Under the pieces are notes generated by a model, which saw only the letters and a list, made by a program, of their open reading frames with translations, was not told where the DNA came from and did not search any database. Below are positions 6,252 through 54,723 of a stretch of 64,000 nucleotides of DNA, piece after piece (the stretch's first letter is position 1; each line of letters begins with the position of its first letter). Source of the DNA: Candidatus Giovannonibacteria bacterium (GTDB lineage: Bacteria > Patescibacteriota > Minisyncoccia > UBA11713 > 2-01-FULL-45-33); the NCBI GenBank assembly GCA_016432405.1, contig CP066687.1, forward strand, positions 150,281 to 214,280, written 5' to 3'. The translations under genes and the position numbers were made by a program.

Positions 6252-6526
6252 ATTTTAAGGAATGGATACCAAAAAGACGGGGGCCGATGACCATAGCCGG
6301 CATTTGGACAGCCGGAGTGGTTGCAGCGCTCGCCCTGCTCTCGGCGGCGCTCTGGGCGGATTTTCTGCTTTACAAAAATTTTGTTTCTGAAAAGGAAACG
6401 GCGGCGACGGAATGGAGCGCAGCCGCGCTCAAAAAAATCAATCTGGAAAGGGCGGGCAAAAAACTTCGCGAAGAAAAATCCTTTCTGGACAATCCAACAT
6501 TCCCGTTTGTAGAAAGCCCTTTTTAG
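6248..6526 (+). CDS. Small membrane protein, pilus-cluster associated (hypothetical)
   Basis: 92 aa, one TM (IAGIWTAGVVAALALLSAALWADFLL), overlaps pilO stop. Confidence 0.4.
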   Translation: MNFKEWIPKRRGPMTIAGIWTAGVVAALALLSAALWADFLLYKNFVSEKETAATEWSAAALKKINLERAGKKLREEKSFLDNPTFPFVESPF

Positions 6527-6553: not shown

Positions 6554-6625
6554 CCCCTCGTAGCTTAACGGACAAAGCGGCGCTCTTCTAAGGCGTTGAT
6601 GGGGGTTCAATTCCCTCCGAGGGGA
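6554..6625 (+). tRNA. tRNA-Arg (anticodon TCT)
   Basis: Cloverleaf by eye: acceptor CCCCTCG/CGAGGGG, D stem GCTT/AAGC, anticodon loop CTTCTAA, T loop TTCAATT. Confidence 0.7.
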
Positions 6626-6640
6626 CAAGATAAAAATAAA

Positions 6641-6668
6641 AAGCAGGGGAGAATTCCCTGTCTCTCCC
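6641..6668 (-). terminator. Intrinsic terminator oriented for the reverse strand
   Basis: 9-bp stem CAGGGGAGA/TCTCCCCTG with 10-nt loop; U-run (CTTTTTATTTTTA) follows on the reverse strand only. Confidence 0.6.
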
Positions 6669-6856
6669 CTGTGAGTTGATGCGCCTTCAACGAGGCGCCA
6701 TTGTTATCTTTTCAGCCCGGAGTATCTAATTCCGAGCCGCCTTCCTGCCTCCATCCTCGGTCGCCTTTTTGGGCGTGGGCTGGCGGTTTTTGAGCCGTCT
6801 GGTAGCGGCTCGTTACCATACAGGTACGCCAGTGCGACCTTACCCGAACGTGCCCA

Positions 6857-6952
6857 TTACCAGACGGACGCGATGATCTCCGCTTTGTTGACCTTCGCCT
6901 TCTGCGTCAGTGCCAGCTGGAGACACGCGTCGGGTGCGCGTATGCGCTTCAT
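6857..6952 (-). CDS. Small ORF (31 aa, MKRIRAPDACLQLALTQKAKVNKAEIIASVW) with strong SD; part of a GC-rich reverse-strand transcript
   Basis: GGAGGTG 7 nt upstream of ATG; below ORF-track size cut-off; G/C-ending codon usage atypical for this genome. Confidence 0.35.
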   Translation of the reverse strand: MKRIRAPDACLQLALTQKAKVNKAEIIASVW

Positions 6953-6975
6953 AAAATCACCTCCTTCCGCTTTTA

Positions 6976-7003
6976 ATTTTAGCAACTTGCCAGACGCAGT
7001 CAA
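6976..7003 (-). promoter_or_regulatory. Sigma70-like promoter TTGACT-N16-TAAAAT for the reverse-strand small gene
   Basis: Reverse-strand reading: TTGACTgcgtctggcaagttgcTAAAAT, about 25 nt upstream of the SD/ATG. Confidence 0.5.
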
Positions 7004-7058
7004 GTTTGATATCCACAATAGAAATTGATAGAATTTTAATTATTTTGAGCGTGCCTGC

Positions 7059-7130
7059 GGGCCTATAGTTCAGTGGCAGAACGCATCCATGGCATGGATG
7101 AGGCGGGAGTCCGATTCTCCCTAGGTCCAA
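7059..7130 (+). tRNA. tRNA-Ala (anticodon GGC)
   Basis: Acceptor GGGCCTA/TAGGTCC with G3:U70 Ala identity pair; anticodon loop ATGGCAT. Confidence 0.8.
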
Positions 7131-25095: not shown

Positions 25096-25647
25096 ATGGC
25101 ATTTAAAAAAACGAGCGCAAATAAAAAACCCACTTTAACTTTCCTGATTTTAAAAACAATTTTTGATTTGGGTGCCATTACTGTAAACTCATTTTTCCCT
25201 GCAAAATACCCGCAAGCACGAATCTGGAGACAGCTTTTAGGCTTGGATAAATCTTACAAATTTTCCCGTCAATCATTCGCGGTCATTTTAAGCAGGCTTC
25301 AGAAACAAAAATTGATAGCGTGCCAAAATGGCAAGTGGAGCATTACCAGCTTAGGCAAGAAAATAATTGGAGAATCAAAATTTAGACAGAATTCCGAATT
25401 GCCTCCGGAAGATGGCAAGGCGCGGTTATTCATTTTTGATATTCCGGAACGAGAGCGCAAAAAGCGTTTATGGCTTCGCCTTGAGCTTATTTCTTGCGGT
25501 TACAAGCTTTTGCAAAAAAGCGTTTGGGTTGGCTACCGGCCGTTGCCGGAATATTTTTTGAGGGACTTGGAGGATTTTAATCTAAGATCTCATATTCATA
25601 TTTTCAGCATTCATCACAGCGGCACTCTCCAAAAGGAGAATTCTTAA
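25096..25647 (+). CDS. PaaX-like winged-helix transcriptional regulator (short form)
   Basis: N-terminal wHTH; central segment DGKARLFIFDIPERERKKRLWLRLELISCGYKLLQKSVWVG matches PaaX/Cas2-like fold segment. Confidence 0.5.
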   Translation: MAFKKTSANKKPTLTFLILKTIFDLGAITVNSFFPAKYPQARIWRQLLGLDKSYKFSRQSFAVILSRLQKQKLIACQNGKWSITSLGKKIIGESKFRQNSELPPEDGKARLFIFDIPERERKKRLWLRLELISCGYKLLQKSVWVGYRPLPEYFLRDLEDFNLRSHIHIFSIHHSGTLQKENS

Positions 25648-25649
25648 AC

Positions 25650-25683
25650 TTAACAAACTTGACCGATCGGTAAGGTTTGTTAA
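25650..25683. repeat. 34-nt inverted-repeat element, copy 2 (TTAACAAACTTGACCGATCGGTAAGGTTTGTTAA)
   Basis: Starts 3 nt after PaaX-like stop codon. Confidence 0.55.
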
Positions 25684-25782
25684 GTCGTGACACAAATAAA
25701 AAAGCGCAGGGTTATTCAACCAATGCGCTATCGCAAAACTCGAGACGTCGGCTTATGCTCGGGTATGCGTATGGCACTCTCT

Positions 25783-26040
25783 TTATTTAAAGAAAGATAA
25801 AATAATGCCCATAATCATAATCACCAATGATGTCAGTATCCATTTGTTGTTAATTTTCACCGCCAACCTTACATTGGGATCCCGCATGTTAAATCCTTTT
25901 ATTTCGTCATGATGAGGTGGGCGGAAAAGACTGAAAATAAGTATCCCGGCTAATCCCGCAAGGGCTAAAATAAGTCCAAAGTAGTGCATAAATCCTCCTT
26001 TTCTGCCAACAATCTTAGCAAAATTGTATTCCTTTGTCAA
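25783..26040 (-). CDS. Small membrane protein (hypothetical)
   Basis: Two hydrophobic helices; 85-aa ORF. Confidence 0.3.
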   Translation of the reverse strand: MTKEYNFAKIVGRKGGFMHYFGLILALAGLAGILIFSLFRPPHHDEIKGFNMRDPNVRLAVKINNKWILTSLVIMIMGIILSFFK

Positions 26041-40442: not shown

Positions 40443-40649
40443 TTAGTGGAGTGCTCTCATGCGCCTTGGAATGTCGTTGATTTTTTCCTCCAGCGCCTTG
40501 ATTTCTGCCTCAAGGCGTTCGCGTTCTTCTTCGCTGAGTTCGCCGCGAATTGATTTTTTCGCGAGAGCCACACGTTTCTCTGTAACTTCGTTGGTAAGCT
40601 TAAACCCTTCGGCTAAAAGAGCTTTTACCTCGTCCAATGTTTTATTCAT
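40443..40649 (-). CDS. Small coiled-coil protein (hypothetical, 68 aa)
   Basis: Start at internal ATG 40649 with AAGGAGGTG SD; helical, charged (…LSEEERERLEAEIKALEEKI…). Confidence 0.35.
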   Translation of the reverse strand: MNKTLDEVKALLAEGFKLTNEVTEKRVALAKKSIRGELSEEERERLEAEIKALEEKINDIPRRMRALH

Positions 40650-53671: not shown

Positions 53672-54723
53672 GGGTTTTCATGATAAGCGGGGATCCGGGG
53701 GTTTTAGAACCGCAATCGGAGACCGGAAAAAGAACGGAAGAATATCGCAAAGCCCTCGGCAAGCTGGATGTTTTGGTTTGCCGCGGAAGTATTTTTAGTT
53801 TTATTTTCGGGTTTTTGGGAGGACTTAAAATACTTTGGCGCAATAAGTACGATGTGATTACGGCGCAAGATGTGGAGCACACGCTTCTGGCATGGGTATT
53901 TTCAAAATTTTTCAAAACCCCGTTTCAAATGCAAATACACGCCGATATTATGAGCCCGTATTTTCGGCGGGAATCGCTTAAAAATAAAATCCGCGTCGCG
54001 CTCGCAAAATTTTTAGTCCCGCGCGCGGATTGCGCGCGGGTGGTTTCGGAGAGAATTAAAAATTCAATTTTAAGGACGTCGGACGTCCGTTCGGACGTCC
54101 GACGTCCAATAATTGTTCTCTCAATTTTCGTTGACACAGAAAAAATCAAAAACTCGCCAATCAAAACCGATTTGCACAAAAAATATCCCGGGCGGTTTAT
54201 AATTTTGATGGCGTCGCGGATAACAAAAGAAAAAAATATCGGATTGGCGATTGAGGCAGTGAAGGGGCTAATAACCCACCCCTTAAACCCTCTACTTCTC
54301 ATTGTTGGAGACGGGCCGGAGATTGAAAATTTAAAATTTAAAACTTACAAGCTGGGGCTGAATGAAAATATCGTTTTTGAGCCGCATACTGACGATTTAA
54401 TCTCTTACTATAAAACCTGCGATTTATTTTTACTGACCTCAAATTACGAAGGATATGGGCGCACTCTGGTTGAGGCCGCTGCCGCGTCAAACGCGGTTGG
54501 CACAGCGGGGGCGAAAATTATATCAAGCGACGTCGGCATCGCGCCGGAAATTTTGGAGCCGGAATGTATTTTCAAAGTCGGCGACAAAAATAATTTAATT
54601 GAAAAATTAAATTCAGTTTTCTTGGGTAACATCAAGACACCGAAACTACTTGTTTCTCAAACAAAAGAGGATTATTTAGGGTTATATAAAAGCAGTTTTG
54701 AGGTATGCGCTCATAAAAAATGA
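53668..54723 (+). CDS. GT4-family glycosyltransferase
   Basis: …TSNYEGYGRTLVEAAAASNAV… Glycos_transf_1 signature. Confidence 0.7.
   Translation: MRVFMISGDPGVLEPQSETGKRTEEYRKALGKLDVLVCRGSIFSFIFGFLGGLKILWRNKYDVITAQDVEHTLLAWVFSKFFKTPFQMQIHADIMSPYFRRESLKNKIRVALAKFLVPRADCARVVSERIKNSILRTSDVRSDVRRPIIVLSIFVDTEKIKNSPIKTDLHKKYPGRFIILMASRITKEKNIGLAIEAVKGLITHPLNPLLLIVGDGPEIENLKFKTYKLGLNENIVFEPHTDDLISYYKTCDLFLLTSNYEGYGRTLVEAAAASNAVGTAGAKIISSDVGIAPEILEPECIFKVGDKNNLIEKLNSVFLGNIKTPKLLVSQTKEDYLGLYKSSFEVCAHKK
54074..54107. repeat. 34-nt perfect GC-rich palindrome (GGACGTCGGACGTCCG-TT-CGGACGTCCGACGTCC) inside GT4 CDS
   Basis: 16-bp perfect arms, built from GACGTC units; encodes RTSDVRSDVRRP in frame. Confidence 0.7.

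Follow-up and report, generated by a model that had tools for sequence, protein, structure and literature searches.

The locus between the two tRNA genes

The window analysed here is a stretch of 64 kb (64,000 nucleotides, nt) of contig CP066687.1 from a Candidatus Giovannonibacteria bacterium. Between its genes for tRNA-Arg(TCT) and tRNA-Ala(GGC) lies a 432-nt spacer (6627-7058), and the minus strand of this spacer carries a complete, well-formed small transcription unit, which is an orphan specific to one Giovannonibacteria lineage. In the order of transcription, the unit consists of a predicted promoter, a Shine-Dalgarno sequence, an open reading frame (ORF) of 31 codons, a hairpin that overlaps the end of this ORF, a structured 3' region, and an intrinsic terminator (Table 1). 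A previous reading made from the nucleotide sequence alone, without database searches (the sequence-only reading), had drawn attention to the locus. The two tRNA genes that it placed at the borders were both called, and both are intact. The spacer is the second-largest gap free of genes in the window, of which coding sequences and tRNA genes take up ~92%. Its GC content is 51% overall, 0.559 over positions 6641-7003 and 0.575 over positions 6641-6960, compared with 0.30-0.45 for the other intergenic gaps and 47.3% for the window. Thus, the GC-rich block that had been described does stand out from its surroundings, but its GC content is about 56-57% and not 60%. The junction that the spacer forms is 100% identical in two further contigs (L018 and L019) from two sequencing runs, one of which (L018) covers it from the sigma factor gene through to the pilus genes, and it is therefore not an assembly artefact.

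Table 1. Features of the minus-strand unit, its flanking genes, and two other stand-alone small genes of the window
Feature	Position	Strand	Details and basis
tRNA-Arg(TCT)	6554-6626	+	ARAGORN/Rfam; closes left synteny block (pilM/N/O, p92, tRNA-Arg)
Intrinsic terminator (predicted)	6634..6671	-	Stem 6671..6644, 10 bp with 6 G-C pairs, 8-nt loop; CUUUUUAUUU
GC-rich structured 3' region	6672..6794	-	Several hairpins, from folding; includes GCGCCU/AGGCGC at 6681-6698
73-nt hairpin	6795..6867	-	Closing stem a perfect 10 bp, arms 6795-6804 and 6858-6867
31-codon ORF plus TAA	6857..6952	-	MKRIRAPDACLQLALTQKAKVNKAEIIASVW; ATG at 6952, TAA at 6859-6857
Shine-Dalgarno sequence	6956..6966	-	AAGGAGGTGAT, 11 nt; sequence reading
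Sigma-70-type promoter (predicted)	6976..7003	-	TTGACT-16-TAAAAT, TGn-extended -10; consensus scan
Divergent promoter serving tRNA-Ala (predicted)	7006..7034	+	TTGATA-17-TAGAAT, TG-extended; consensus scan
tRNA-Ala(GGC)	7059-7129	+	ARAGORN/Rfam; opens right synteny block (tRNA-Ala, sigma factor, p118)
Stand-alone 68-aa gene	about 25786-25989	-	Strong promoter, AAGGAGG Shine-Dalgarno
Stand-alone 68-aa gene	about 40446-40649	-	Strong promoter, AAGGAGG Shine-Dalgarno

Expression signals of the minus-strand unit

The near-consensus promoter reported by the sequence-only reading is present and has, in addition, a TGn extension of its -10 hexamer; transcription is predicted to start at about 6971-6968. 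Sites that match the consensus at 10 or more of 12 positions and have the TG extension occur seven times in the window against ~0.6 expected from shuffled sequences, an enrichment of about 10-fold, and the promoter of the unit is therefore probably real and unlikely to be a chance match. For its strong promoters, this genome seems to prefer the extended -10 type. Promoter-like matches in general are not enriched locally (3 versus 2.2 expected). The noted positions of TG-extended sites of this quality are 7003-, 7006+, 26040-, 28030+, 37264- and 40716-, the sign giving the strand. The second of these is the divergent promoter of tRNA-Ala, whose -35 hexamer (7006-7011) lies back to back with that of the unit (7003-6998), separated by 2 bp (AGTCAA-GT-TTGATA); RNA polymerases at the two promoters could compete or be co-regulated.

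The 5' untranslated region is short, about 17-20 nt, and contains a Shine-Dalgarno sequence as strong as had been claimed: AAGGAGGTGAT is what we take to be an 11-nt complement of the canonical 3' tail of 16S rRNA, and its GGAGG core is located 7 nt ahead of the ATG. The motif AGGAGGTG has three copies in the window, all of them 5-6 nt upstream of a start codon. At the other end of the unit, the stem of the predicted terminator (previously put at 6641-6668) is followed by the tail CTTTTTATTT, whose T-tract has no counterpart on the plus strand, in agreement with the strand-specific terminator that had been proposed. The predicted 3' end of the RNA is ~8-10 nt away from the 3' end of the convergent tRNA-Arg.

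A DnaA-box-like 9-mer had also been noted about 45 nt upstream of the promoter. The 9-mer in question (ATATCCACA, 7009-7017) is actually located 6-14 nt upstream of the -35 hexamer and is a single 8/9 match at chance level. The window contains 13 such sites with at most one mismatch versus 9.4 expected, and an oriC or DnaA-box cluster is not supported.

The 31-codon ORF and the frame beyond its stop codon

The ORF reads exactly as the sequence-only reading gave it, and its codon usage is indeed G/C-ending and foreign-like. The GC contents of its first, second and third codon positions (GC1, GC2 and GC3) are 0.58, 0.42 and 0.84, compared with 0.54, 0.39 and 0.56 across 19 genes of the window, and a GC3 of 0.8 or more is found in just 0.5% of the 31-codon windows inside those genes. 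The periodicity has the phase expected of a gene and stops at the TAA, GC1/GC2/GC3 being 0.58/0.62/0.58 over the next 50 in-frame codons. On this pattern, the 31 codons resemble coding DNA of foreign codon usage, and readthrough finds no support. Together with the strong Shine-Dalgarno sequence and its optimal spacing, the periodicity argues for translation of the 31 codons, which we infer to take place.

The extension of about 50 codons past the TAA to which the sequence-only reading had pointed does exist. It is conceivable that the stable hairpin over the stop codon stimulates programmed readthrough along this open frame, giving a basic protein of 82 residues, but we regard this as very improbable. 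Apart from the loss of coding periodicity, the extension coincides with RNA helices, and the extended product has no relative in Pfam, PHROGs or the protein database searched. Moreover, the stop context is UAA-U, and UAA followed by U is an efficient termination signal.

The encoded peptide has a net charge of +4 and is predicted by a structure model to form a single helix over residues 9-30 with moderate confidence (pLDDT, predicted local distance difference test, of 69). It is not hydrophobic (grand average of hydropathy, GRAVY, of 0.08; best 18-mer Kyte-Doolittle mean of 0.47), nor is it amphipathic (hydrophobic moment of at most 0.26).

RNA structure and the choice of strand

The perfect 10-bp stem that had been seen at the stop codon (6798-6866 in the sequence-only reading) closes a hairpin of 73 nt. 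The 5' arm of this hairpin starts at the second base of codon 29, takes in codons 30 and 31, and extends over the first two bases of the stop codon. Owing to this overlap, a ribosome that terminates there has to melt the hairpin. Compared with shuffled sequences, the whole 346-nt region folds with a z-score of -3.7 on the minus strand and -4.6 on the plus strand. The structure is concentrated in the 3' 235 nt (6636-6870; z = -3.7 for the minus strand and -4.85 for the plus strand), where none of 200 shuffles folded as well, whereas the segment comprising the ORF and leader (6868-6970) folds like random sequence (z = -0.18). The self-complementarity claimed for the GC-rich sequence is thus borne out for the 3' part, while the ORF part is unstructured. 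By eye, an arrangement of CCGCC/GGCGG and CCGAG/CUCGG within 6672..6794 could form a pseudoknot. The region is not enriched in GGA motifs (9 versus 8.4 +/- 2.4 in shuffles), and a sponge RNA of the CsrB/RsmZ type was rejected on these grounds. A coarse folding scan of the window in 200-nt segments, noisy with its 15 shuffles per segment, gave the lowest z-scores at 54041-54240 (+; -9.8), which falls within a 351-aa ORF, and at 25641-25840 (+; -7.4), which spans a gap of convergent genes.

The folding energies of the two strands are nearly equal, and the minus strand has 6 G-U pairs against 11 for the plus strand; the assignment to the minus strand rests on the promoter, the Shine-Dalgarno sequence with its ATG, and the terminator. 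We also considered a structured plus-strand RNA that shares its transcript with tRNA-Arg or is processed from it, in which case the minus-strand signals would be coincidental. The slightly better fold and larger number of G-U pairs of the plus strand are in its favour; besides, both flanking tRNAs are encoded on that strand, and in the closest relative a tRNA split by a plus-strand group I intron occupies the corresponding slot. However, a terminator-like plus-strand hairpin at 6681-6698, followed by CATTGTTATC, would halt read-through from tRNA-Arg early, and tRNA-Ala has a promoter of its own. In addition, the plus strand has no Rfam match at E<=10, Intron_gpI included, and no similarity to the intron of the relative. 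We consider a plus-strand RNA quite unlikely.

Searches for relatives of the unit

The sequence-only reading had left room for a known structured RNA, to be sought with Rfam/Infernal. A scan of both strands with the Rfam 15 covariance models, which include RNase P, transfer-messenger RNA (tmRNA), signal recognition particle (SRP) RNA, 6S RNA, group I and II introns, riboswitches and OLE/ROOL/GOLLD/HEARO/raiA, returned no family for 6627-7058 at the gathering threshold and none accounting for the region at E<=10. The best matches were two mammalian long non-coding RNA (lncRNA) models with E-values of 1.7 and 5, which we regard as noise; the flanking tRNAs score 61-66 bits in the same scan. ARAGORN found no tmRNA in the window. 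A group I intron was rejected, as Intron_gpI had no match at E<=10 compared with 66 bits for the intron of the relative L020, and as the flanking tRNAs are intact. A known housekeeping or catalytic RNA (RNase P RNA, tmRNA, SRP RNA, 6S RNA or a group I intron) that has diverged past recognition would agree with the size (~330 nt), with a GC content above that of intergenic DNA, and with the position beside tRNAs. Nevertheless, the lncRNA matches are at chance level, the universal P4 motif of RNase P and the domain IV motif of SRP RNA are not visible in the sequence, and a housekeeping RNA would be conserved in relatives, which the unit is not. Such an origin is hardly to be expected.

At the protein level, neither the 31-aa peptide nor the 82-aa readthrough product belongs to a Pfam or PHROGs family, and an initial impression that the peptide resembles the helix-turn-helix of AlpA/Xis-type proteins was dropped for this reason. 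In a phmmer search of 1.84 billion representative proteins, the peptide had no match but itself; its 90% cluster is a singleton present on 7 contigs from one study. A protein-database search with the readthrough product yielded no candidate, although the peptide itself was not returned either, so that short proteins are possibly not indexed there. At the nucleotide level, blastn and nhmmer searches with the 432-nt spacer against 43 loci gathered for comparison gave no match apart from the identical contigs L018 and L019. A single-sequence covariance model of the 3' domain (6700-6870) found only itself in 257 kb of related loci. A distant blastn search of phage and plasmid collections gave no match to the spacer DNA, and IMG/VR gave none to six back-translated peptide patterns or to a hairpin-arm pattern. 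No second copy of the unit is present in the window or in the 257 kb of related loci. Conservation in related Giovannonibacteria, which had been named beforehand as a check, was not found: the ORF and the structure are present in none of the syntenic loci. The idea of a conserved structured-RNA family fails for this reason.

These results bear on the alternative that the unit encodes a purely non-coding minus-strand small RNA (sRNA) of ~335 nt, which would act by its structure or by base pairing and in which the ORF would be fortuitous. The significantly structured 3' region, the promoter and terminator of its own, and the lack of any homologue of the peptide in the phmmer search and in its singleton cluster are consistent with this alternative. 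Yet a perfect 11-nt Shine-Dalgarno sequence at optimal spacing to an ATG, codon-position GC periodicity that coincides exactly with the ORF, and an ORF part free of excess structure are at odds with it, and neither an Rfam family nor an RNA homologue was found by covariance model or nhmmer. We consider it unlikely, if still worth keeping in mind.

A variable slot downstream of tRNA-Arg(TCT)

The source of the window is a tiny, uncultured groundwater bacterium of the Parcubacteria, within the Candidate Phyla Radiation (CPR). A 92-aa protein encoded on the flank has an identical counterpart, HYW15_01040, in a metagenome-assembled genome (MAG) at NCBI, and the best matches of the neighbouring sigma factor are from Giovannonibacteria MAGs. 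We compared the surroundings with two sets of related loci: twelve that contain a close relative of the sigma factor (68-90% identity; right flank), and about two dozen that contain the pilM/N/O-p92-tRNA-Arg(TCT) block (PilM up to 93% identical; left flank). The two flanks are different synteny blocks, the pil genes being absent from the right-flank loci, and the unit fills the whole 432-nt junction between them. In the right-flank set, the distance from tRNA-Ala to the sigma factor gene downstream of it is 60-570 nt in five relatives (L001, L002, L003, L007 and L012) and 1.2-1.4 kb in two (L004 and L006). In L002 and L012, tRNA-Arg(CCT) and a small ORF on the plus strand, which encodes a membrane protein (MNNWFYGSYGHWASPFWGG...), come before tRNA-Ala; at L002:3087-3393 and L012:3565-3867, this ORF takes up a spacer nearly as long as the orphan unit.

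In those left-flank relatives whose contigs reach far enough, p92 and tRNA-Arg(TCT) are followed by cargo that varies by lineage. The closest relatives (L020, L035 and L036) have in this slot tRNA-Val and a tRNA bearing a group I intron, and in L020 and L036 a large serine recombinase is encoded downstream (domains Resolvase, Recombinase and Zn_ribbon_recom in L036). The intron-split tRNA directly follows tRNA-Arg(TCT) and tRNA-Val(TAC) at L020:6642-6935 (~L035:6499-6792), the Intron_gpI match extending over L020:6664-6902; its anticodon loop, CUGAA|GA by eye, would make it a tRNA-Phe(GAA), which ARAGORN did not call. In L022 (6621-7111, +), the slot holds a gene pair of DUF4258 (RelE/barnase-like) and DUF2283, likely a toxin-antitoxin module. 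In L026 (6703-7040, +), it holds an unrelated stand-alone unit with a perfect TTGACA-16-TATAAT promoter, a leader of ~100 nt, AAAAGGAGGG as Shine-Dalgarno sequence, a 38-aa ORF (MRNHILSPPGSVYAEAINFIATFLASGTTATHSATGSS) and a 10-bp terminator, followed by hsp20 on the opposite strand. The remaining left-flank relatives have other ORFs in the slot. Homology between the window and L020 ends ~13 nt past tRNA-Arg, at about 6638, and nothing upstream of tRNA-Ala aligns with relatives, so that the whole 432-nt spacer is unique to this genome. The synteny places the spacer at a rearrangement junction that is also a hot spot for accessory cargo.

Weak, AT-rich inverted repeats of 14 nt (79%) are found at the borders (6626-6639 and 7040-7053). 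The combination of this weak border repeat with a single copy in the window and in the related loci led us to reject a miniature inverted-repeat transposable element or another repeated mobile element. A 24-nt inverted repeat, 83% complementary, connects 6418-6441, inside the p92 gene, with 7036-7059, just upstream of tRNA-Ala, and its motif GCTCAAAAA / TTTTTGAGC recurs at 6787-6795. This repeat could be due to chance or be a trace of the rearrangement behind the junction.

The location of the unit raises the question of whether it is a non-functional relic, that is, a decaying scrap of high-GC foreign DNA left by a mobile element or rearrangement, with signals that are leftovers or only weakly used. 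This would fit a synteny breakpoint that is a variable cargo slot with a large serine recombinase in the closest relative, as well as the GC content and GC3 foreign to the genome, the complete orphan status, and the border repeats. It fits less well with the expression signals, every one of which is intact and of high quality, a state not expected of DNA that decays in a streamlined genome with 92% coding density. Nor does the window contain a second copy or, adjoining the unit, a recombinase, an integrase or an att-like tRNA duplication. A relic is, in our view, improbable but to be reckoned with.

Interpretation

We tentatively favour, with a confidence close to but short of an even chance, that the unit was acquired horizontally and is a strain-specific mRNA for a small protein, or a dual-function RNA, with a structured 3' region. 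The TG-extended sigma-70 promoter would start a minus-strand RNA that extends from about 6970 to about 6635 (~335 nt). Its leader would be very short, and the 11-nt Shine-Dalgarno sequence would drive translation of a cationic, single-helix peptide of 31 residues. The last codons and the stop codon would fold as the 5' arm of the 73-nt hairpin, followed by ~120 nt of further hairpins and the intrinsic terminator. The structured 3' part would most likely shield the short mRNA from 3' exonucleases, and it may have a regulatory role as well. Since the end of the ORF is also part of the first hairpin, the RNA is expected either to be translated there or to adopt the 73-nt fold, but not both at once.

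Several lines of evidence led us to favour the mRNA or dual-function reading. The promoter, the Shine-Dalgarno sequence with its ATG, and the terminator, whose T-tract is specific to the minus strand, are all on one strand and in the right order within a large gene-free gap, and other stand-alone small genes with such signals are present in the window (starts at 40649 and 25989), where AGGAGGTG is used only before start codons. The periodicity of the ORF ends exactly at its TAA, with an outlying GC3, and the ORF segment folds no better than random sequence, in contrast to the 3' 235 nt. Finally, the spacer is unique to this genome, relatives have other cargo in the same slot, and the junction was reproduced in contigs from two sequencing runs.

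Other observations weigh against this reading. The support for the unit is prediction at the sequence level, and no homologue was found in which purifying selection on the ORF or covariation in the helices would show. An ORF of 31 codons may arise by chance in GC-rich DNA, and the structural model of the peptide reaches only a pLDDT of 69. Segment 6641-6840 (-) ranks 13 of 638 in the coarse folding scan, and is thus structured without being unique. The plus strand folds slightly better than the minus strand, and the structure cannot decide between them because the helices are almost entirely Watson-Crick paired, with few G-U pairs.

Taken together, the observations probably describe an acquired small gene confined to one strain, and not a new family of RNAs. 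Its transcript might have a dual function. One form that this might take is a lineage-specific CPR RNA in which translation up to the stop codon melts the 73-nt hairpin and frees or refolds the 3' domain, so that the passage of ribosomes would be linked to how active or how stable a regulatory RNA is; we give this combination as a whole little probability. To our knowledge, this CPR group has no Hfq and almost no described riboregulators, and the regulatory RNA repertoire of CPR/Patescibacteria is almost unknown. If expressed, the unit would be among very few candidate small-protein or dual-function RNA genes in these bacteria. Being a single-genome orphan, it is useful chiefly as a target in metatranscriptome mapping and as a marker of the cargo hot spot beside tRNA-Arg(TCT). 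In Giovannonibacteria, this slot appears to receive different small cargo in each lineage, and it may be useful for the study of gene flow in reduced genomes.

Comparison with known systems

Type I toxin mRNAs, such as hok, ldr, tisB and fst, are similar to the unit in that they combine a short ORF with a structured RNA of ~300 nt, and they are often found in accessory or mobile DNA. Unlike these toxins, the peptide of the unit has neither a hydrophobic or transmembrane stretch nor amphipathicity, and it has no homologues. A consensus scan, which was not exhaustive, detected no antisense promoter inside the unit, the sole nearby plus-strand site being the one that faces tRNA-Ala (7006-7034). 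A type I toxin-antitoxin system was rejected in view of the low GRAVY value, the lack of an 18-residue hydrophobic stretch, and the lack of an antisense promoter.

The known dual-function sRNAs SgrS/SgrT, RNAIII/hld, SR1/SR1P and AzuCR/AzuC are transcripts of a few hundred nt with their own promoter and terminator, which contain a short ORF with a good Shine-Dalgarno sequence and a long structured non-coding part. The predicted unit shares these traits and has, at the level of sequence prediction, both the promoter and the intrinsic terminator required of a dual-function sRNA or small-protein mRNA. It differs from them in that its ORF is located at the extreme 5' end and in that it has no sequence or Rfam relationship to them; moreover, known dual-function sRNAs are conserved within genera, whereas the unit is found in a single genome.

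Closer at hand, the two 68-aa genes of the window, one product of which is coiled-coil-like (MNKTLDEVKALLAEGFKL...) and the other apparently a two-pass membrane protein (MHYFGLILALAGLAGILIF...), resemble the unit in their promoter, which is TG-extended or near-consensus, and in having a Shine-Dalgarno sequence of the AAGGAGG type 4-8 nt ahead of the ATG. Their ORFs are twice as long and are not followed by a structured tail of ~220 nt, and the GC3 of the unit is foreign in comparison. The unit in L026 occupies the same slot after tRNA-Arg(TCT) and likewise consists of a promoter, a Shine-Dalgarno sequence, a short ORF and a terminator, although it is located on the other strand, encodes 38 aa, and has no sequence similarity to the unit described here. 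Membership of the families tested is unsupported. We regard the unit as belonging to a known kind of gene or RNA and not to a new class, and its architecture resembles those of dual-function sRNAs and ordinary small-protein genes.

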